NCBI GenBank assembly: GCA_951812955.1
Contig: OX638340.1
Location: 3,584,001 to 3,648,000, forward strand
DNA: 64,000 nucleotides
Reading direction: 5' to 3'
From: an uncultured Gemmatimonadota bacterium
Lineage (GTDB): Bacteria > JAAXHH01
The notes below the pieces were generated by a model, which was not told the DNA's origin, did no database searches, and saw only the letters and a list, made by a program, of their open reading frames with translations. A program made the translations under genes and the position numbers. This document shows positions 2,189 through 39,019 of the stretch, one piece after another. Within the stretch, counting starts at the first letter, position 1, and every line of letters begins with the position of its first letter.

Positions 2189-3040
2189 TCAAAAGATCTC
2201 CGCGCCGCCCGCAACGACCAGGTCCACGGCCGTGAGGTAGTCCGATTCGGGCGAGGCCAGGAAAGCGACCGTCTGGGCCACGTCGTCGCCCCGGGCTACC
2301 CTTCCAAGGGGTGAGATGTCGGTTTTTTCCTGGATGAATTCCTGGTGGGCATCGCTGTTTTTCCAGGATTTTCCGAGGATGGCGCCGTCGGATATGGCCT
2401 CGGCAATGAATCCCACGCGTTCGGTGTCGACCGCGGTGGGCGACACGGAATTGACGTTGATGCCGTGTGGACCGAGTTCCTGCGCCAGCGCCTGGGTGAA
2501 ACGGATGATGGCGGCCTTGGAGGCGCAGTAGGCGGAGAACCTCGGACGTCCGATCTTGCCCGACGTGGAGGCGATGTTGATGATCTTTCCGCCGCTTCCC
2601 CGTTCGATCATGTGGCGCGCCGCGGCCCGGCACATGAGGAACACGCCCCGGGCGTTGACGTTCATTTCCTTGTCCCAGGCCTCTTCTTCCATATCGACCA
2701 CGAGGACGCGGTCCTTACCCGGCAGGGAACCGGCGCCGTTCACCAGGATGTCTATGTGACCGAACCGTTCGACCCCCCGCGATACGAGGTCAGCCACGTG
2801 GTCGGACTTCGAGACGTCGGCCAGGATGGCCTCCGCTTCCCGCCCCGCCGCCTCGATCTCCCTGACCACCGAGGGCAAACCCTCCCATTCCGACGAATCT
2901 CCGGGATAGGGATTGGTGATCAGGTCGCTGACGATGACGTCGGCGCCTTCCCGGGCGAGGCGCGTGGCGACGGCCCTGCCGATGCCCCGTTCGCCGCCCG
3001 CACCGGTGACCAGGGCGGTTTTGCCGTGGAGGTTGTACAT
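2189..3040 (-). CDS. SDR family oxidoreductase (3-oxoacyl-ACP reductase-like)
   Basis: Conserved start MYNLHGKTALVTGAGGERGIGRA with AAGGAA RBS upstream, NGAG and YCASK motifs. The 429-aa ORF call is an upstream overprint, so the start is placed at ATG 3038-3040. Confidence 0.85.
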   Translation of the reverse strand: MYNLHGKTALVTGAGGERGIGRAVATRLAREGADVIVSDLITNPYPGDSSEWEGLPSVVREIEAAGREAEAILADVSKSDHVADLVSRGVERFGHIDILVNGAGSLPGKDRVLVVDMEEEAWDKEMNVNARGVFLMCRAAARHMIERGSGGKIINIASTSGKIGRPRFSAYCASKAAIIRFTQALAQELGPHGINVNSVSPTAVDTERVGFIAEAISDGAILGKSWKNSDAHQEFIQEKTDISPLGRVARGDDVAQTVAFLASPESDYLTAVDLVVAGGAEIF

Positions 3041-3066
3041 GGAACGTTCCTTTTTCTGGCTGTTTA

Positions 3067-3954
3067 TCACTCGCCCTCTCTCCGGGGCCGCACCACGGTC
3101 TCGCCATCGTCCTCCACGAGGGGATGGTGATAGATGTAGGGCGGTTCCAGCACGGCGCGCTGCGCCTCGGTCAGCTCCGAGGTCCATTCGGGCAGGTTGG
3201 CCTCGTAGATCCCGCCGGCGTAGTGGAGATACTTGGGCGTATACCGGTACAGGGCGACGCGCCGGTCGTTCCTGCCGCGCCAGGGCAGCGTGCCGTGGGC
3301 GGTAGCCTCGTTGAAGATCACCAGGTCGCCGGCTTTCTGGACGATGTGATGGACCAGGTCCTGGTTGGCCTCCCAGGTCAGGATATCCTCGGGACATGGC
3401 AAGTTGGCCTTGTGGCTGCCCGGTATGACGCAGAGACCGCCCGCGCCGGGATCCACGTCCGCCAGGGCGAACTGGCACACGATGAGGCCCGATCGCATGC
3501 GCCCGTTGTGGTAGTGGTAATAGCGGGAACCGTTGAAGGTCGCGTTTCCCGAGCCGTGGATCTTGAGCCCCTCACACCCCGCTTCGGCGACCAGCACGTC
3601 GACGCCGTGGTCGAGCTTCCAGCCACGCCCGAACAGGGTGTTTAGATAGGGAATGATCTTCGGATGGGCCAGGAGGTCGCGGAAGGGTTGGCACCACGGC
3701 TGCGGCCAGGTGAGCATGCCCTCGTAGTGGCGAAAGGGCGCATGCCGTCCTTCGAAGGGCCTTCCCCGCCAATCGCCGCTGAGTTCGTTGGGTCCGTCGT
3801 AGGACCCGAGCCGGTCCGGATTGGCGTCGAGGGCCTCGTTCAGCGCTTCGACTTCGTCACCGTTCAGGAAACCCCGCACGTGAAGAAAGCCCTGCAGGTC
3901 GTACAGGTACTGCTCCTCTTCACTCATGGTCGAAAAGGCCGGTGTATCGGCCAT
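3067..3954 (-). CDS. Phytanoyl-CoA dioxygenase (PhyH)-family Fe(II)/2-oxoglutarate oxygenase
   Basis: N-terminal YLYDLQGFLHVRGFL motif typical of the PhyH/ectoine-hydroxylase-like family. First gene of an apparent minus-strand operon with the two SDR genes (26- and 66-nt spacers). Confidence 0.75.
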   Translation of the reverse strand: MADTPAFSTMSEEEQYLYDLQGFLHVRGFLNGDEVEALNEALDANPDRLGSYDGPNELSGDWRGRPFEGRHAPFRHYEGMLTWPQPWCQPFRDLLAHPKIIPYLNTLFGRGWKLDHGVDVLVAEAGCEGLKIHGSGNATFNGSRYYHYHNGRMRSGLIVCQFALADVDPGAGGLCVIPGSHKANLPCPEDILTWEANQDLVHHIVQKAGDLVIFNEATAHGTLPWRGRNDRRVALYRYTPKYLHYAGGIYEANLPEWTSELTEAQRAVLEPPYIYHHPLVEDDGETVVRPRREGE

Positions 3955-4262
3955 GGAACGTCCTCCCTGGATGCTGTCCCAAACGATCTGGATGGCGCAT
4001 GCAGAAATTTCTGATGTTATGCACTGAAAGATAGCCTGCGCGGCACCGCGCGCAACGACAAAAAGCGCTTCGAGGACCTCACGTGGGACGAAAAAAAACG
4101 ACGATCTGAAACCCTTCGACGCGTATACAAAATGCCTTGACAGTCCTGCGGGGGCCGGTTAACGTCACGTAGTCCCCGCCATGGGGTGACCACGGGTCTG
4201 TGACCTAAAATGAACGTTGTGTTTTTCCTTAAGAAAACTACGCCCCGAAACTACGGGATGCC

Positions 4263-5225
4263 GTGTCCGAAGAAACCGAAGTACCCGAGCAGATCGAAGC
4301 GCAACATCTCGACCGTCCGACGGTTCCCGAACTGGATGAATTCCTTGGCGTTCCCTTCAAGGTGCTCGACGACGGGTTCGTCCGCGTCGTGGACTACATG
4401 GGCAGCGATCACTCCATCGTGCAGGCCGCCCGTGTTTCCTACGGCGCCGGTACCCGGCAGGTCCACCAGGACCGGGGGCTGATCCGCTATCTCATGCGGC
4501 ATCAGCACACCACTCCCTTCGAGATGTGCGACATCAAGTTTCACCTGCGGGTGCCCATGGACTGCTGGCGCCAGTGGATCCGTCACCGGACGGCCTCTGT
4601 CAATGAATACAGCACCCGTTACTCGCTGGCGATCGATGCGGCGCAGACCACGCCGCCCGATGCGTGGCGGTTCCAGGCGCAGGGCAATCGCCAGGGCAGT
4701 GGCGGTTTCGTCGACGAAGCACAGGGAGCGCGTTTTACTGAGAAGGAACAGGAGCTTCAGGAGGCCGCCCGGTCCCGCTACGAAGAGCGCATCGAAGCCG
4801 GCATCGCCCGGGAACAGGCCCGTAAGGATCTTCCCCTTTCCACGTACACGGAAGCCTACTGGAAAGTGAATCTCCTGAACCTGCTTCGGTTCCTGCTCCT
4901 GCGCATGGACGATCACGCCCAGTGGGAGATCCGGCAGTACGCCCATCTGATCGGACACCGCATCGTGTCCGCCTGGTGTCCCGTGGCGTGGCAGGCCTTT
5001 CTCGACTACAGCGTGAACGCCATGCAGCTGACCCACCTGGACTGGGAGATCATCCGGGCGATTCAGGCTGGAGACGACAAGGCGATTCAGGATCTGCTGC
5101 TGGAGTACCGGTTCGTTTCGAAATCCGGTACCCTGCGCCGCAACCGGGAGCGGGACGAGCTCGAAACCAAGCTTCAGAAGCTGAATATCCCGATTCCATG
5201 GCGATCCGGTGATGATCCCGACTAA
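4263..5225 (+). CDS. thyX: Flavin-dependent thymidylate synthase ThyX
   Basis: ThyX signature RHRTASVNEYSTRYS (RHR-x7-S). GTG start 4263. AT-rich divergent intergenic region upstream. Confidence 0.85.
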   Translation: MSEETEVPEQIEAQHLDRPTVPELDEFLGVPFKVLDDGFVRVVDYMGSDHSIVQAARVSYGAGTRQVHQDRGLIRYLMRHQHTTPFEMCDIKFHLRVPMDCWRQWIRHRTASVNEYSTRYSLAIDAAQTTPPDAWRFQAQGNRQGSGGFVDEAQGARFTEKEQELQEAARSRYEERIEAGIAREQARKDLPLSTYTEAYWKVNLLNLLRFLLLRMDDHAQWEIRQYAHLIGHRIVSAWCPVAWQAFLDYSVNAMQLTHLDWEIIRAIQAGDDKAIQDLLLEYRFVSKSGTLRRNRERDELETKLQKLNIPIPWRSGDDPD

Positions 5226-33182: not shown

Positions 33183-33653
33183 ATGGAAGGCGGCGGCAGC
33201 GAAGGCTCCTGGCTCAACACGCTCATGGGACAGAACGTTCGGGTTATGACGCCGGGATCCGCCACGGAGGATCGCGTGACGGTCATCGAGGCCGTCGAGC
33301 CGCCCCACAGCTCGCCGCCCGTCTTCACCCGCCACGCCTTCATCGAGATGTTCCTGGTCGTCAGAGGTGCCCTGACGTTTCAGTTTCTACACGAAAGCGC
33401 CTTTGTGATCGAAGCTGGCCAGATGGTGACCGTACCCGGCTACCGGCCCCATTCCTTCTGGAACGAGGGGGACGACCCGGCGGCGGTCATGCTGATCTGC
33501 ACGCCCGCGGGGTTGGACCGGTTCTTCGAGGCTTCCGATCGGCTGCTTCGGCGCATGCCGCCGGACACGACCGATCCCGATGAGTTGAAAGCGGAGATGG
33601 CACGCCTTCGGAAGGAGTTCGGGCTGGAACACGTGGCGCCGGCGCCGCGGTGA
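33183..33653 (+). CDS. Cupin domain protein
   Basis: Small beta-barrel cupin-like core (FIEMFLVVRGALTFQF...GQMVTVPGYRPHSFWN). 156 aa. Confidence 0.5.
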   Translation: MEGGGSEGSWLNTLMGQNVRVMTPGSATEDRVTVIEAVEPPHSSPPVFTRHAFIEMFLVVRGALTFQFLHESAFVIEAGQMVTVPGYRPHSFWNEGDDPAAVMLICTPAGLDRFFEASDRLLRRMPPDTTDPDELKAEMARLRKEFGLEHVAPAPR

Positions 33654-33968
33654 GGCTTGATTGTCTTAAGGAGGTAACGCTGTCGTTCAGATATACGTAA
33701 CTTCCCGAAAAGAACGTTACGGTGTCGACGAAACACCGTGGAATAGCACACGATTGAAGGATTTGATGTATCCTATAAACTGAGTTGACCCCGTTTAGTA
33801 CGTATGAATTTTTGTACAACGAGGAGTGTTCGACACAACTCCAAGAAATGTGAATCTGTCTACAAACTGGTAATCTTGGTTTTATGTGCACCGGGTAAAG
33901 TCAGTCCGCGTGGGTATGACAGCGTTTATCGGAAAGCTCGGTCGTATGAGGATCAAGGAGTTGGCGTG

Positions 33969-34394
33969 ATGGCGAGAGTCCGAAAGTCAACTGCAATTGA
34001 ACGATTGCAGAGGTTGGTTGATGAGGCTTCAGAGCTGGATATGGAGGATGATAGCTCTCAGGAAGTTCAAAAATGGATACAGGACGTTTATACCGCTTTT
34101 ATCAACATATTCGGTGAGGATAGTTCTCAGTTTTCACGACTTCCGCAAAGTCACAAAACAACCCCAAGTGGGGTTCGTGAATACCTGAGATCAATGGTTT
34201 CCTGCGTCGCGTCTAGTCTCGATGAGATCAAGTACTTTCGGGAGGATGAAACAGAAACTGTGAAACAACCCTCAGAACAGGGTGACTTAAAAGCACCAGA
34301 TAAGGATTGTTACGACCAGGGATCGGCGACAAAAAAGTCTTTGTCGTTCATGGTCACGACGAGGCCGTCCTGCAGGCGGTTGCGAGATTTCTAG
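33969..34394 (+). CDS. Hypothetical acidic protein (possibly the N-terminal part of a frameshifted TIR-like gene)
   Basis: AAGGAG 33955-33960, ATG 33969. Lower-GC island. Its 3' end overlaps the next ORF by 88 nt, and an A6 run at 34323-34328 separates the two frames. Confidence 0.35.
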   Translation: MARVRKSTAIERLQRLVDEASELDMEDDSSQEVQKWIQDVYTAFINIFGEDSSQFSRLPQSHKTTPSGVREYLRSMVSCVASSLDEIKYFREDETETVKQPSEQGDLKAPDKDCYDQGSATKKSLSFMVTTRPSCRRLRDF

Positions 34395-34768
34395 AAAAGC
34401 TGAAACTCGAACCAGTAATCCTGCACGAACAGGCGAATCAAGGCCGCACGATCATAGAGAAATTTGAGGATCATTCGGATGCGAGTTTTGCCGTGGTTCT
34501 GCTGACACCTGACGACATAGGCGCGGCCGTTACGGATAAGGCCGATCTACGGCACCGAGCTCGTCAGAACGTAATTCTCGAACTCGGATTCTTCATTGGG
34601 AAGTTGGGTCGCAACAGGGTCTGTGCTCTGAAATCGCGTTGTGTCGAAAATCCGTCGGACGTCGATGGGATGGTCTATATCAACCTCGACGAGCCAGATG
34701 CATGGAAGACCGGACTCGTGCGGGAGTTAATGGCAGCTGGTTTCGCCATCGACGCTAACTGGGTTTAG
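34307..34768 (+). CDS. TIR-like (COG4271/CAP12-type) nucleotide-binding domain protein
   Basis: KKVFVVHGHDEAVLQAVARFLEKLKLEPVIL...FAVVLLTPDDIG...RARQNVILELGFFIGKLGRNRV matches the TIR-like COG4271 pattern. Only TTG 34307 is available as a start in this frame. Confidence 0.5.
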   Translation: MLRPGIGDKKVFVVHGHDEAVLQAVARFLEKLKLEPVILHEQANQGRTIIEKFEDHSDASFAVVLLTPDDIGAAVTDKADLRHRARQNVILELGFFIGKLGRNRVCALKSRCVENPSDVDGMVYINLDEPDAWKTGLVRELMAAGFAIDANWV

Positions 34769-34773
34769 CAGCC

Positions 34774-35079
34774 ATGAACGCACAGTTGTCGATTTCCAAA
34801 ACCGAATTGTCAGCCTATTGTAAAAATCATGGCATCCGACGATTAGCAATTTTCGGATCGGTGCTCCGGCCAGATTTTGGCCCGGAGAGCGATATCGACG
34901 TACTGGTCGAGTTCGCACCGAGTCACACTCCCGGTCTGCTGGGCATGGCCGGATTGGAGATTGAACTATCCGAATTGTTTGGCGGTCGGAAGGTGGACCT
35001 GCGGACTCCTGAGGAATTGAGTCGTTATTTTCGACAGAAGGTCATTGACACGGCAGAAGTTCTATATGTGCAGGGATGA
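34774..35079 (+). CDS. mntA: MntA-type nucleotidyltransferase (antitoxin of HepT/MNT toxin-antitoxin pairs)
   Basis: Minimal nucleotidyltransferase motif FGSVLRPDFGPESDIDVLVEF. 101 aa. Confidence 0.7.
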   Translation: MNAQLSISKTELSAYCKNHGIRRLAIFGSVLRPDFGPESDIDVLVEFAPSHTPGLLGMAGLEIELSELFGGRKVDLRTPEELSRYFRQKVIDTAEVLYVQG

Positions 35080-35182
35080 CGAAATCCCATTACAGCACAT
35101 GTTGGACGCCGAGCGGGAGGCAGTGTGTTTTTCACGAGGACACAGTTGGTTGCAGCCGCTAAGTCAAGCCTACCATATCGCG
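35066..35182 (+). pseudogene. hepT: HepT (DUF86) toxin remnant, truncated after 38 codons
   Basis: MCRDDEIPLQHMLDAEREAVCFSRGHSW... matches the HepT N-terminal block, then TAG at 35180-35182. Overlaps the mntA 3' end by 14 nt, as in intact MNT-HepT pairs. Confidence 0.45.
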
Positions 35183-35550
35183 CGTGAATAGTAATCCAGG
35201 ATGGTGGTGTCCGAAGTCACGAGCAGGCATTTGTTCAATTTGGCCGTGGCCACGATCGTGCGGTCGACAGGATCCCGGTGATCCCAGTCCAGTTCGAGAT
35301 TCCCAATCCATGTCCGCACGTCCACTGGACGTACTTCAATCCGTTCGGTCCGTTCCAGATTTTATGCGAAGTCCTGAATGGACAGGGGCAACACAAGATC
35401 GGCCTTTTTCACCCTAACGCCGATCTCCCAGATCGAGATCGAACTGATGCACACGCGGTCGGCTTGTGTAATCGTCTGGTCGTCGATTTTGGACAGGCGT
35501 TCGGGATCCAGTGTCCAGAAAACAAGCGCGGACGTATCCAGTACGACCAT
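35161..35550 (-). pseudogene. VapC-like PIN-domain toxin interrupted by an in-frame TAA
   Basis: MVVLDTSALV...SIWEIGVRVKK...DFA, then TAA (35362-35364), then the same frame continues ...DHRDPVDRTIVATAKLNKCLLVTSDTTILDYYSRAIW* carrying the remaining PIN acidic residues. Confidence 0.6.
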
Positions 35551-35780
35551 TACGTTTCATCCCATTCGTCGATTGTCGGTGTGTCGATGTCTCCATGATA
35601 GACGATCTTTCCCCGCAGTCCATCGAAGATCCTGTCAACCGATTGCTTTGGCTTTATGGGTTTTACACTGAGAACTGGACTCCGGTTATGCGTTACGATC
35701 AGATCCTCGCCCGATTCCTCGATTTCTCGAAATACCCGAAGCATATTGGCCTTCAGCTTGCTCTTCGATTTGAACAGCAT
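35550..35780 (-). CDS. Phd/YefM-family antitoxin
   Basis: KLKANMLRVFREIEESGEDLIVTHNRSPVLSVKP matches the Phd/YefM N-terminal fold pattern. The stop shares a nucleotide with the vapC start (TGATG). Confidence 0.55.
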   Translation of the reverse strand: MLFKSKSKLKANMLRVFREIEESGEDLIVTHNRSPVLSVKPIKPKQSVDRIFDGLRGKIVYHGDIDTPTIDEWDET

Positions 35781-35950
35781 ATGGACTCCAGTCTGTTTAG
35801 TAAAAGACTATGGGCATGACCCTGGTTATATTCGAAGGATTTCCTATGAACCGTCAAGGATTTATCTCATTCTCGGCAACTTAGAAGTCGGATTCCGTGC
35901 GACTATTCCGACTGTATAGGTATGATGTTCAATTCAATGTGTAAGACAGG

Positions 35951-35979
35951 TTGACAATCGACGTCCCGACGTCTAATAT
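35951..35979 (+). promoter_or_regulatory. Near-consensus sigma70-type promoter (TTGACA-N17-TAATAT) with tandem GACGTC palindromes in the spacer; predicted leaderless start for the MTase gene
   Basis: TTGACA 35951-35956, spacer atcGACGTCccGACGTC, TAATAT 35974-35979, ATG 35986. No RBS. Confidence 0.4.
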
Positions 35980-35985
35980 TAAAAT

Positions 35986-37122
35986 ATGGCCACTAACACC
36001 GAAAGATACGCTCCTGGTCGAGTACGAGATGCGATAATCCGGGTGATGAGACTAACGACAGAAGGTTTGTCTGCTAAACAGATCGCAGCGAGAGTTGCAA
36101 AGATAGAGGGCCACATGCCTGAGTCCTCGATCAGGTCTTATCTTCGTCTGAACACTCCAGAGACATTTGTTCGTGAAAGGAGGGGGGTATACCGCCTTAA
36201 GGTAGATCATGACAGCAGTCTGCAACGAACGATGTTCAGGAGTCCACCTTGGCAGGAACCCTTCAAGTTTGGATCGGCTACATTGTTTCATAGTGAATGT
36301 TTGGATTGGCTGGACGCAAGAGATGACCAATCAATCCACGCGATAGTTACCGATCCACCTTACGGTCTGCAGGAATACACAGCGAAAGAGCAGACGAAAC
36401 TCCGAAATAGGAAGGGGGGGATCTGGAGGATTCCTCCTGCATTTGATGGCCACGTTCGTTCGCCGTTACCAAGATTCACTACTTTAACCGATGAACAAAA
36501 ACTTTATCTTCGGGAGTTTTTCTATATCTGGTCTCGTCTACTGATCCCCAAGTTGGTACCTGGCGCCAACGTGGTCGTTGCCTCCAATCCACTACTCTCC
36601 CACATTGTCGCCGGCGCTATAGCGGATTCGGGGCTTGAAAGACGCGGCGACATCGTCAGGCTTGTTATGACTATGCGTGGCGGTGATCGGCCAAAAGCGG
36701 CACATGATGAATTCAAGGACGTCAGTGTGCTCCCCAGATCAATGTGGGAGCCATGGCTGATATTCCGTAGGCCTGTGGAGGGAAGAGTACAGGACAACCT
36801 CAGAAAATGGAAAACGGGAGGGTTTCGACGGCCGACTGGACTCAAGCCATTCGGAGATGTTATTCAATCTTCCCCGACCAGAAAAAATGAGAAGGCGATA
36901 GCACCTCACCCCAGCCTTAAGCCACAATCCTTCTTACGACGCCTCGTGAGGGGTGTTCTTCCACTAGGTGAGGGTATAGTTGTCGATCCCTTTGCCGGCG
37001 CTGGCTCTACTCTCGCGGCCGCTGAAGCAGTTGGGTACGAGTCAATCGGAATAGAAAAGGATTCTCTGTACTTCAATATGGCCAAGGAAGCACTACAGCC
37101 ACTAGCCGAGCTCGAAGTGTAG
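35986..37122 (+). CDS. Beta-class DNA methyltransferase (N6A/N4C type) with N-terminal HTH domain
   Basis: Motif IV TDPPYG upstream of motif I VVDPFAGAGST (beta-class order). N-terminal ~80 aa HTH-like (LSAKQIAARVAKIEGHMPESSIRSYL). Lower-GC island. Confidence 0.8.
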   Translation: MATNTERYAPGRVRDAIIRVMRLTTEGLSAKQIAARVAKIEGHMPESSIRSYLRLNTPETFVRERRGVYRLKVDHDSSLQRTMFRSPPWQEPFKFGSATLFHSECLDWLDARDDQSIHAIVTDPPYGLQEYTAKEQTKLRNRKGGIWRIPPAFDGHVRSPLPRFTTLTDEQKLYLREFFYIWSRLLIPKLVPGANVVVASNPLLSHIVAGAIADSGLERRGDIVRLVMTMRGGDRPKAAHDEFKDVSVLPRSMWEPWLIFRRPVEGRVQDNLRKWKTGGFRRPTGLKPFGDVIQSSPTRKNEKAIAPHPSLKPQSFLRRLVRGVLPLGEGIVVDPFAGAGSTLAAAEAVGYESIGIEKDSLYFNMAKEALQPLAELEV

Positions 37123-37141
37123 GGACTGAAGGAATCCTCAA

Positions 37142-37672
37142 TTACCTGTCTAGGTAAATCCAGTTCTCGCGAAGTTTACTCACGCCAAAGCGGTCAAGTG
37201 TGGCAGTTCGTGTGCCGAGTTCCCCTCTCGGATTGCGTCTAAAGTCTTCGATGGTTACCCTAGATAGGTAGACTTCCCTAAACGTCATTGGAAGTCTTGA
37301 TGAAGAGGGTTCGGTTTTGTTATCGACCTCGTATACAAATACACACATCCACTGGTCGCGCGCGCCATGTGTATCGACCGCACCGCCTTTTTTCTTCGTG
37401 GTTTTGATTTCAAGACCCTGATCTCCCGACTTAACGGAGTTTTCTGCGTAAACTCCCTGAACGAGAAGGTCAGGATGGCCATTGAAGTAGTTGTTTTCAG
37501 TAAGCACCCTTGAATGTTTAGCCAGACTGGCCGTCAGCATGTCCGATAGCACACCAGACATGATAGCGGGTCTCAACATATCGTCAAGCCGTTCCAGTCC
37601 GCGGTCTACCAGATGAGAATTGACATCGTGGAAGAAATCATAAACGTCCTGCATTGCCGACTCGAAATCCAT
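37142..37672 (-). CDS. Putative type II restriction endonuclease (PD-(D/E)xK)
   Basis: Convergent with the MTase, 19 bp tail-to-tail. GHPDLLVQGVYAENSVKSGDQGLEIKT gives PD...EIK spacing. Low GC with a very AT-rich upstream region. Confidence 0.45.
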   Translation of the reverse strand: MDFESAMQDVYDFFHDVNSHLVDRGLERLDDMLRPAIMSGVLSDMLTASLAKHSRVLTENNYFNGHPDLLVQGVYAENSVKSGDQGLEIKTTKKKGGAVDTHGARDQWMCVFVYEVDNKTEPSSSRLPMTFREVYLSRVTIEDFRRNPRGELGTRTATLDRFGVSKLRENWIYLDR

Positions 37673-37864
37673 AATGCGGAGCTGATATGGTAAAGTCGAG
37701 TCAGGATTGAATGATTCTCTTACTACGACATTTCTGGATTGTTTGATCCGTTCGTCTCCTTCATGTTATCTGAATGCATGTTTCAACAAAATGTGATTTA
37801 CTGTGAATTTGTAAACCACTACCTACAATATCATGACCTAGAATCTCATGAAAGTAAAATCAAT

Positions 37865-39019
37865 CTATTCCTCCACGGCCCGCAGATCCAGCGCCAGGTC
37901 GCGGAAGCTCCGCACGCGGTGTAGGGTGACCAGGTTGGTGTCGTGCTGGTTCTTGCCGCCGCGCGCGGTGCGGGCGACGACGAGTAGATCGTCTCCGGAG
38001 ATGACCTGCGAGGCGTAGCTGAAGGACTCCATAATGCTCCTGCTCATGGCCACGCATCCGGCCTGGAACCAGTTGAGGGCGTCCATGCTGTACATAAGCA
38101 TTAGGATACGCCGCTCGTTTCCCGGCGGTCCGCTGAAACCGATTCGCCGAAGGGGTTCCCGGTCCTGCCACGGGTTCGTGGACAGGGTCACCGTGGTCCA
38201 GTAGAGACCGCCTTTATCGTCGTGGACGATCTGAAACTTGCACTGGGCGCCCGGCATGGGGTGGAACTGGAGGAAACGGTAGTCGAGGTTCCGACCGTCG
38301 TCCTCGACCCGTCCGATTGATGCCAGGCTCGACGTCGTGTGGCCATCGACGATCGTGCGCATGACCATCCGGATCTCGCCGTCCACCAGCACGATGTTGC
38401 CCTCCAGGAAGCTGTCGGCCGGCACCTTGTCCTTCAGGCTTTCGGGATATTTCCGCTGCGAGAGCACATCGGGGATACCAGGAAACCGGACGTGATTGGA
38501 CATGCGCCAGGCCGCCGGATCCAGGAGGTCTCGCGCCAGGTCGCCGGCCACCACCAGCGACTTCCAGTCGAAACGGCTGGGCGCGTCGCAGGTCTCGAAG
38601 GCGCGGTAGGCATGCCCGTTGTGGATCAATACCGGCGTCGGTGCGCAGTGGTGCTTCCCTTCGAAGAGCGTGACCGGCCCTTCCCAGGTGAAGCCGCCGT
38701 CCCGGGAGCGGCCGATGACGATGTCCCGGCTTTTGCGCTTGTTTCCGATGAGATAGGCGTCGTCCCCGTAGGCCCAGACGGTCGCCCAGATGAAATCCTG
38801 GCACGACGCGAGGGTCCACGTTGCGCCGTCGTCGTCACTGACCAGTACCTCGGTCTGATCCGGCACGGATTCCTTGAGCGGACTGGGACGGAACCATTCG
38901 TAACTGGCCAGCAGGCGTCCCGAGCGCATCCGCGCGATCGACGGTGAACCGGCGTATACGTTCTCCGGGTCGGGTGACGAGGCCAGTACCTGGTAGTCTT
39001 TGGCGAGCATTCGATTCAT
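37865..39019 (-). CDS. BNR/Asp-box repeat glycoside hydrolase (sialidase-like)
   Basis: Asp-box motifs SDDDGATW and SRDGGFTW. 384 aa. Confidence 0.7.
   Translation of the reverse strand: MNRMLAKDYQVLASSPDPENVYAGSPSIARMRSGRLLASYEWFRPSPLKESVPDQTEVLVSDDDGATWTLASCQDFIWATVWAYGDDAYLIGNKRKSRDIVIGRSRDGGFTWEGPVTLFEGKHHCAPTPVLIHNGHAYRAFETCDAPSRFDWKSLVVAGDLARDLLDPAAWRMSNHVRFPGIPDVLSQRKYPESLKDKVPADSFLEGNIVLVDGEIRMVMRTIVDGHTTSSLASIGRVEDDGRNLDYRFLQFHPMPGAQCKFQIVHDDKGGLYWTTVTLSTNPWQDREPLRRIGFSGPPGNERRILMLMYSMDALNWFQAGCVAMSRSIMESFSYASQVISGDDLLVVARTARGGKNQHDTNLVTLHRVRSFRDLALDLRAVEE

Follow-up and report, generated by a model that had tools for sequence, protein, structure and literature searches.

Why should an intact antitoxin gene stand beside a toxin gene that stops after a few dozen codons? 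This question is raised by a locus in a 64-kb stretch of DNA (hereafter the window; contig OX638340.1 of assembly GCA_951812955.1) from an uncultured Gemmatimonadota bacterium, in which mntA, encoding an antitoxin of the type VII toxin-antitoxin (TA) family, overlaps the start of a frame resembling its toxin gene, hepT. A first-pass annotation of the window had seen here the loss of a toxin with retention of the antitoxin, and had named anti-addiction immunity or TA decay as possible causes. In the current study the window was compared with related loci, which are designated by L-numbers (L001, L007, L008, L016 and so on). The results indicate, with a probability of roughly 85%, that the locus consists of an orphan MntA beside a hepT stub of about 26 codons, and that it arose by ordinary toxin-first TA decay in a decaying defence island. 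The intact mntA and the 5' fragment of hepT bear out the proposed loss of the toxin and survival of the antitoxin.

The 101-aa MntA matched Pfam Polbeta (PF18765, 43.9 bits; cut-off 26.9) and NTP_transf_2 (PF01909, 43.2 bits; cut-off 21). Its translation contains an exact GSX10DXD motif, read as G28-S29-(VLRPDFGPES)-D40-I-D42, which is the signature of MntA antitoxins as defined by Yao et al. (PMC7641770). The open reading frame (ORF), the Pfam matches and the motif support the initial description of an intact nucleotidyltransferase gene at 34774–35079. Homologues of MntA numbered 5353, nearly all of them 101 aa long, and the closest solved structure was the minimal nucleotidyltransferase 1WOT (E = 2e-7). 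The PADLOC model PDC-S09 (MNT-like protein) was matched with E = 1e-24. The score for the NCBIfam model NF047752 (MntA_antitoxin), 39.5 bits, was under the equivalog cut-off of 60 bits and marks similarity at the family level only.

The overlapping frame extends from the ATG at 35066 to a TAG at 35189–35191 and reads MCRDDEIPLQHMLDAEREAVCFSRGHSWLQPLSQAYHIARE. Its length of 41 codons is as first reported, while the stop lies about 9 nt further on than the TAG at 35180 (end 35182) given before, and the headline statement that HepT is cut after 38 codons has to be corrected. Only about 26 of the 41 codons are derived from HepT. The start codon overlaps the 3' end of mntA by 14 nt, and the same offset was found in at least 60 related loci, as in intact pairs. 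When the intact 122-aa HepT of L008 was searched against the window with tblastn, only its residues 1–27 were matched (35066–35146, 70% identity, E = 7e-8); this search revealed no other HepT in the 64 kb, the next best match having an E-value of 0.28. For a custom HepT profile, 33 intact HepTs that are paired with MntA of this family were used, and the profile was run against all 1754 stop-to-stop segments of the window. It matched the stub at positions 1–26 of its 116 positions (27 bits, E = 3.3e-7). Both searches uphold the earlier observation that the frame begins like HepT. The comparison with a HepT profile that had been recommended was thus positive with the family-specific profile and negative with the generic Pfam and NCBIfam models, a negative result that is uninformative because a piece of 26 residues is beyond the reach of such models. 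Read to the letter, the missing generic match is the outcome that the first-pass annotation had named as a refutation.

The remaining codons of the frame are not derived from HepT, but come from the former spacer and, in antisense, from the 3' end of vapC, the toxin gene of a neighbouring convergent vapBC pair. The RX4HXY motif of HepT holds both the RNase site and the tyrosine that is AMPylated by MntA (PMC7641770). In the HepT of L008 this motif is RNRLVHAY, at residues 75–82; it was absent from the window. Without the RNase site RX4H and the AMPylated tyrosine, the stub cannot be active as a toxin. Decay of the Shine-Dalgarno sequence before the stub was also considered, as the stub lineage has GCAGAAGT where L008, L010, L016 and L025 have GCGGAGGT. 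This was rejected, because several intact hepT loci also carry GCAGAAGT or GCGGAAGT.

How the toxin gene was lost became clear from syntenic relatives in which it is still present. The left flank of the window recurs in L008/L011, on a 3.9-Mb chromosome (MntA 85% identical), with genes for an M28-FtsX protein, a cupin, a CAP12/Pycsar-type TIR-domain protein (CAP12-TIR) and MntA, and in L008 mntA is overlapped by an intact hepT (122 aa, PF01934). In L016 the order is CAP12-TIR, mntA, hepT (120 aa), a spacer of 57 nt, a convergent vapC (126 aa), vapB and the methyltransferase gene that is also found in the window. L025, from a Gemmatimonadetes metagenome-assembled genome (MAG), has the chromosomal flanks of the window, and its mntA-hepT faces vapC-vapB with all four genes intact. 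In DNA alignments with the intact loci, the window and L007 lack one block of about 310 nt. The homology to hepT stops at about 35141–35146 of the window (BLAST homology to L008 stops at 35124), and the homology to the sequence beside the vapC stop picks up again by 35161. The suggested search for an intact pair in related contigs was thus successful, and places the breakpoint at about 35138–35146.

Judged from these alignments, the event is a deletion between two convergent neighbouring TA pairs and not an insertion of vapBC into hepT, because vapBC is already the convergent neighbour of an intact hepT in L016 and L025. The first-pass annotation had stated that the rest of the hepT position is occupied by the 3' end of vapC; this end does overlap the tail of the stub, but vapC was not inserted there, and about 310 bp were deleted. 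The junction sequence GGACACAGTTG matches GGACTCAGTTG of the hepT-vapC spacer of L016 over 11 nt, GGAC(A/T)CAGTTG (shuffle p about 0.02), which tentatively hints at a microhomology-mediated deletion.

That the truncation is an error of assembly or sequencing, or results from insertion of vapBC into hepT, was considered as well, since the window comes from a metagenome-type assembly and the nearby CAP12-TIR gene has a private 1-nt indel beside a homopolymer. However, MntA is 99–100% identical in L001–L006, L009 and L171, which come from JGI metagenomes, NCBI Gemmatimonadetes MAGs, ENA and Logan, and the gene order and the stub are identical in all of them. In L007 (MntA 95% identical) the junction is again the same, but vapC is intact (126 aa). 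The junction is common to at least 10 independent assemblies and is no assembly artefact, because it was recovered identically by JGI, NCBI, ENA and Logan. Insertion is further opposed by L016 and L025, where an intact hepT and an intact vapC face each other at this site, and no repeats or target-site duplications flanking vapBC were found. An artefact or an insertion is hence barely credible.

How common the loss of hepT is was addressed by a survey of 80 species-representative genome loci carrying this MntA family (L009–L088). One of these, L050, lies at a contig end and is uninformative, leaving 79 informative loci. The state of hepT was classed by the coverage of the downstream gene in a hidden Markov model (HMM) search. 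Classing by a regular expression for the motif was dropped, as some loci were mislabelled by it, for example L016, whose HepT reads RNRLVHANF. In this otherwise intact protein (L016, 4293–4655) the tyrosine of RX4HXY that is AMPylated has been replaced by asparagine, and the RX4H RNase motif is kept. Among the 80 loci, hepT was full-length in 46, gave a long partial match and is probably intact in 4, was split by a frameshift or stop in 7, was present as a stub or fragment only in 8 and was undetectable in 15, including L050. An intact hepT is thus absent from about 29 of the 79 informative loci, owing to stubs of varied length, frameshifts or replacement by another gene, and nearly all of these 29 retain a full-length MntA (HMM coverage 1–100). 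This pattern matches the published toxin-first asymmetry, in which pseudogenisation in Photorhabdus affected the toxin only in 185 cases and the antitoxin only in 8 (PMC13617665).

The survey also bears on whether the 41-codon ORF could be a genuine small protein, i.e. a neo-functionalised N-terminal helix of HepT that, for example, binds MntA or acts as a regulator. The ORF has remained open in L007 despite 9 substitutions, of which 4 synonymous and 2 nonsynonymous ones fall in the 26 HepT codons, but these counts are far too small to show selection. In other genomes the stubs stop after about 5–37 HepT codons and have unrelated tails, and with such different ends the ORF is no conserved small protein. 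Moreover, part of the tail is dictated by vapC on the opposite strand, and no Pfam or NCBIfam family was matched. A functional small protein is therefore extremely improbable, and a complete, conserved product, which the first-pass annotation had named as grounds for abandoning its interpretation, was not found. That some stub of hepT always remains is explained by the start of hepT inside mntA, within the 14-nt overlap.

In several Latescibacterota loci, among them L031 (4293–4973), L058 and L072, hepT gives way after its first five codons (MIKHD) to a gene beginning ...GMNRCVYIFLDESGNFDF. The ORF of this gene has 226 aa in L031, and in L058 and L072 the gene has been truncated in turn. It looks DUF3800-like.

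The surveyed subfamily, within which the MntA proteins are 55–99% identical, occurs in Gemmatimonadota, Rhodospirillales, Latescibacterota, Binatia, Nitrospira, Chloroflexota, Entotheonellaceae and others, and most of the genomes are uncultured MAGs. Many of these are presumably sponge or coral symbionts, judging by their isolate names. This distribution implies wide horizontal exchange.

Exchange on a more recent scale is indicated by the comparison of the window with L007. The two are about 97.5% identical over a 1.4-kb tract (window about 33800–35200, L007 about 3030–4430), which spans CAP12-TIR, mntA, the stub, the junction and the last few codons of vapC. Outside this tract, in vapBC and the chromosomal flanks, they are 75–90% identical, and dS between them is 0.52 for vapC and 0.027 for mntA. 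The identity of the tract, far above that of its flanks, indicates that diverged genomes have recently exchanged the toxin-less tract by recombination. This is harmless, because the antitoxin comes in and the toxin goes.

Has the antitoxin kept a function after the loss of its toxin? A comparison of mntA from the window and from L007 gave an omega of about 0.8, from 5 nonsynonymous and 2 synonymous differences, numbers too small to be read by themselves; against the paired mntA of L008, omega was 0.17. Relative-rate tests gave 8–11 unique amino acid changes in the orphan MntA lineage versus 1–4 in the paired L010 and L008, with best p-values of 0.006 and 0.012, uncorrected over several outgroups, and the third codon positions were less skewed. 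The changes include some at positions that are conserved in the family (F15Y, A30V, D81E), and the substitutions are conservative. On these sequence comparisons, it is weakly suggested that the orphan MntA is under relaxed constraint. Some residual activity is possible, because the catalytic motif is untouched.

Several observations weigh against decay by toxin-first loss as formulated here. A number of the outgroups in the relative-rate tests gave no significant result, and the substitution counts are small. mntA is still full-length, with its exact GSX10DXD, and is identical or nearly so across the closest assemblies. Finally, the right end of the deletion was set by L016, whose vapC protein is only 75% identical, and the assignment of the segment 35145–35160 and the microhomology are tentative.

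The intact catalytic motif, the retention of mntA in at least 10 assemblies and the recent exchange of the toxin-less tract between lineages would also be expected if the orphan MntA were selected as an antitoxin acting in trans, which AMPylates HepT from other sites of the genome or from incoming plasmids or phages (anti-addiction or anti-defence). Incoming cognate toxins are plausible, as MAGs of many phyla in this type of habitat carry the MntA/HepT family. Orphan antitoxins of phages reportedly neutralise TA-based defence, which was counted in favour of this function, as was the enzymatic mode of action of MntA (PMC7641770). However, no second HepT was found in the 64-kb window, the orphan lineage shows faster protein evolution rather than tighter constraint, only 2 distant relatives of MntA were found among 2.9 million viral contigs, and the neighbouring effectors are also decaying. 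Selection for activity in trans is thus unlikely, and of the two causes named by the first-pass annotation, TA decay is better supported, by three broken effectors, recurrent orphaning and the faster evolution of the MntA protein.

A more specific form of such selection can be imagined, in which the toxin-less mntA is a mobile 'antidote cassette' against incoming HepT elements, in what are probably sponge or coral symbionts that exchange MntA/HepT across phyla. It may share a transcript with the CAP12-type TIR gene. If true, it would protect its host against addiction or abortive infection imposed by HepT-carrying elements, and would explain why a full-length mntA occurs without hepT in about a third of the genomes with this MntA, why the tract around the junction is about 97.5% identical although the flanks of the genomes are 10–25% apart, and why the catalytic motif is preserved. 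This remains a speculative proposal, to which we give little credence.

Under toxin-first decay, the following order of events is inferred for the locus. The ancestral state would have been an mntA-hepT pair facing a convergent vapC-vapB pair across a short spacer. One deletion of about 310 bp, which may have used the microhomology GGAC, would have taken hepT from about codon 27 to its stop, together with part of the spacer. It would have spared mntA, with the 26-codon stub now reading on, in antisense, into the 3' end of vapC. Deletions of the toxin are tolerated because its loss is harmless, while loss of the antitoxin first would be lethal. The toxin-less allele would then have persisted and spread by recombination between related symbiont lineages, with a nonsense codon in vapC and, in the window, a frameshift in CAP12-TIR as later steps of decay. 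The orphan MntA is most likely without a target and drifting, its catalytic motif still being intact.

The features of the locus are listed in table 1.

Table 1. Positions of the features at the mntA locus within the 64-kb window.
Feature	Position	Strand	Remarks
Low-GC island	33600–37850 (about)		GC 0.45–0.54 vs 0.60–0.65 in flanks; holds TA genes, CAP12-TIR, methyltransferase
CAP12/Pycsar-type TIR-domain gene (PADLOC PDC-S35)	33969–34768	+	Ends 5 nt before mntA; broken here
mntA	34774–35079	+	ATG 34774, stop 35077–35079; intact, 101 aa; minimal nucleotidyltransferase, type VII antitoxin family
hepT 5' stub	35066–35143	+	About 26 HepT-derived codons (MCRDDEIPLQHMLDAEREAVCFSRGH); from tblastn, custom HepT HMM, DNA alignments
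Deletion junction	35138–35161		About 310 bp missing relative to L016
Non-HepT tail of stub ORF	35144–35191	+	SWLQPLSQAYHIARE plus TAG 35189–35191
vapC pseudogene (PIN-domain toxin)	35170–35550	-	126 codons, full length; stop 35170–35172; in-frame TAA 35362–35364
vapB-position antitoxin gene	35550–35780	-	76 aa, intact; weak Phd/YefM-like N-terminus
Type II N4/N6 DNA methyltransferase	35986–37122	+	Pfam N6_N4_Mtase; PADLOC MTase_II E = 2e-100; context, outside the TA pair
176-aa ORF	37142–37672	-	Convergent with methyltransferase, 20 nt apart; present wherever the methyltransferase is (L001–L006)

The convergent vapC had been described as a remnant; in fact it is of full length and is interrupted by one in-frame TAA. 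This nonsense codon replaces E63, the orthologous codon being GAA in L007 and encoding Glu in L016 and L025, and it splits the gene calls at the same place in L001–L006 and L171. With X at the stop, the frame matched Pfam PIN (PF01850) over residues 2–118 (E = 7e-15), and intact orthologues of 126 aa are present in L007, L016 and L025. The 76-aa partner upstream of vapC is conserved in the same three loci, as is its 1-nt overlap with vapC. It gave a weak match to Pfam PhdYeFM_antitox (13.9 bits, under the cut-off of 29.8) and none in NCBIfam.

The gene upstream of mntA is also broken in the window. Its C-terminal ORF matched PF10137 with E = 4e-40, and the intact 266-aa protein of L001 matched PDC-S35 with E = 2.6e-80. 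The loss of 1 nt at about 34329/34330, a C that precedes an A6 run, has divided the gene into ORFs 33804–34394 and 34307–34768. As it is called intact (266–267 aa) in L001–L005, L007 and L171, with a call of 321 aa in L006, the frameshift is confined to the window and could be a private mutation or an assembly error. Thus, all three effectors (hepT, vapC and CAP12-TIR) are damaged in the window, and both antitoxins (mntA and vapB) are intact. The CAP12-TIR of L016 also appears to be frameshifted (ORFs 3088–3732 and 3618–4004).

The close spacing of CAP12-TIR and mntA, seen in several phyla, raises the possibility that MntA works together, in a pair or trio, with the CAP12-type TIR protein (PDC-S35) encoded upstream, in which case the loss of hepT would have left a working two-gene module. 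CAP12-TIR ends 5–8 nt before mntA in the clade of the window and in L008, L016, L017 and L019, and 3' remnants of it are found at the same position in eight further genomes. A comparable match is present in L014, but with 4 stop codons. The gene after CAP12-TIR in the Nitrospira loci L048 and L041 encodes another MNT paralogue. Against such a module, no MNT or HepT gene was found in any of 63 diverse metagenome PDC-S35 loci with at least 350 nt downstream, in a search whose positive control gave 91 and 77 matches in genome loci. Most MntA-HepT loci have no CAP12 at all, and the CAP12 gene is frameshifted in the window and in L016. A pairing of CAP12-TIR with MntA as a general rule was rejected on the result for the 63 loci, the link being specific to the clade, and a working two-gene module at this locus is very unlikely.

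In the Nitrospira/Nitrospirales loci L048 (2758–4637) and L041 (2011–4637), the paralogue that follows CAP12-TIR is divergent (about 40–44% identical) and precedes mntA-hepT. In L041 it is truncated, and a 336-aa gene is inserted.

The content of the low-GC island is modular between the cupin gene and a 384-aa gene (compared for window 35820–37872), and differs among L007, L008, L016 and L025. L007 and L025 have neither the methyltransferase nor the 176-aa ORF, L025 also has no CAP12-TIR, and L008 has a large Mrr/helicase/methylase gene where the window has vapBC. The site behaves as a high-turnover hotspot for defence and TA genes. No tRNA, no Rfam family and no flanking direct or inverted repeats beyond short matches at chance level were found in the island, and promoter or terminator sites were not in excess. 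The 176-aa ORF was unmatched in Pfam, PADLOC and NCBIfam, and is a candidate restriction endonuclease, cognate to the methyltransferase and of a family not yet described. No family was matched by the 384-aa gene that borders the island on the right (window 37865–39019); in L007 (5106–6265) it is called as two ORFs of 175 and 213 aa, which suggests a frameshift or stop in the L007 genome.

Among known systems, the locus is best described as the descendant of a Class I type VII HepT/MntA pair, i.e. as an eroded member of a known family. As in SO_3166/SO_3165 of Shewanella oneidensis (Yao et al. 2020, PMC7641770), mntA lies upstream and hepT overlaps its 3' end, and MntA is a protein of about 100 aa with PF01909 (clan CL0260) and an exact GSX10DXD. 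The class requires a toxin of PF01934 or PF08780, and the syntenic relatives have a PF01934 HepT with RX4HXY, as seen in L008 (RNRLVHAY) and in L025. By analogy, the mechanism of the ancestral pair would be expected to be oligo-AMPylation of the HepT tyrosine by MntA. Unlike the Shewanella system, the toxin in the window is reduced to 26 codons without RX4HXY, so that the pair is no longer a TA system. A further difference is that MntA and the HepT of the relatives, with 39.5 and 37.8 bits, fall short of the NCBIfam cut-off of 60. The two proteins form a distinct subfamily, mainly of uncultured MAGs, and the HepT of L008 has no relative in the PDB that is detectable by sequence.

The neighbouring genes also resemble known systems in part. 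vapC and its partner are similar to type II VapBC in having a full-length PIN-domain frame, a 76-aa upstream partner with a 1-nt overlap and intact orthologues in L007, L016 and L025, but differ in the in-frame TAA (E63) of vapC in the lineage of the window and in an antitoxin that matches Phd/YefM only below the Pfam cut-off. The upstream gene and MntA match PADLOC PDC-S35 and PDC-S09, respectively, and share a low-GC island with a type II methyltransferase gene. However, these PADLOC entries are single-gene candidates without a shown mechanism, the adjacency of PDC-S35 and MNT is clade-specific and the PDC-S35 gene is frameshifted in the window.

The closest parallel to the process itself is the toxin-first erosion that leaves orphan antitoxins (Belot et al. 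2026, PMC13617665; Horesh et al. 2020, PMC7192599). There, as here, the toxin is deleted or turned into a pseudogene and the antitoxin is intact, the location is one of high turnover, and independent losses recur across related genomes. These studies dealt with type II and type IV systems of Photorhabdus and Klebsiella, whereas the pair in the window is of type VII. The window differs further in that two adjacent convergent TA pairs have decayed in succession, by deletion of most of hepT and then by the nonsense codon in vapC, and in that the toxin-less allele was apparently transferred by recombination.

Annotations should label the 41-codon ORF as a pseudogene fragment of hepT, and vapC, too, should be listed as a pseudogene. 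By itself the locus is of little weight, but it is a clean and well-resolved case of toxin-first TA erosion. This process, with its residue of an orphan antitoxin, has already been documented for type II systems, and is here extended to a subfamily of type VII HepT/MntA. Two convergent TA pairs and a TIR effector decay successively at one hotspot, and both antitoxins survive. The natural series from intact (L016/L025) through deleted (L007) to further decayed (the window) is usable for testing the activity of an orphan enzymatic antitoxin, or the cross-protection that it may confer.

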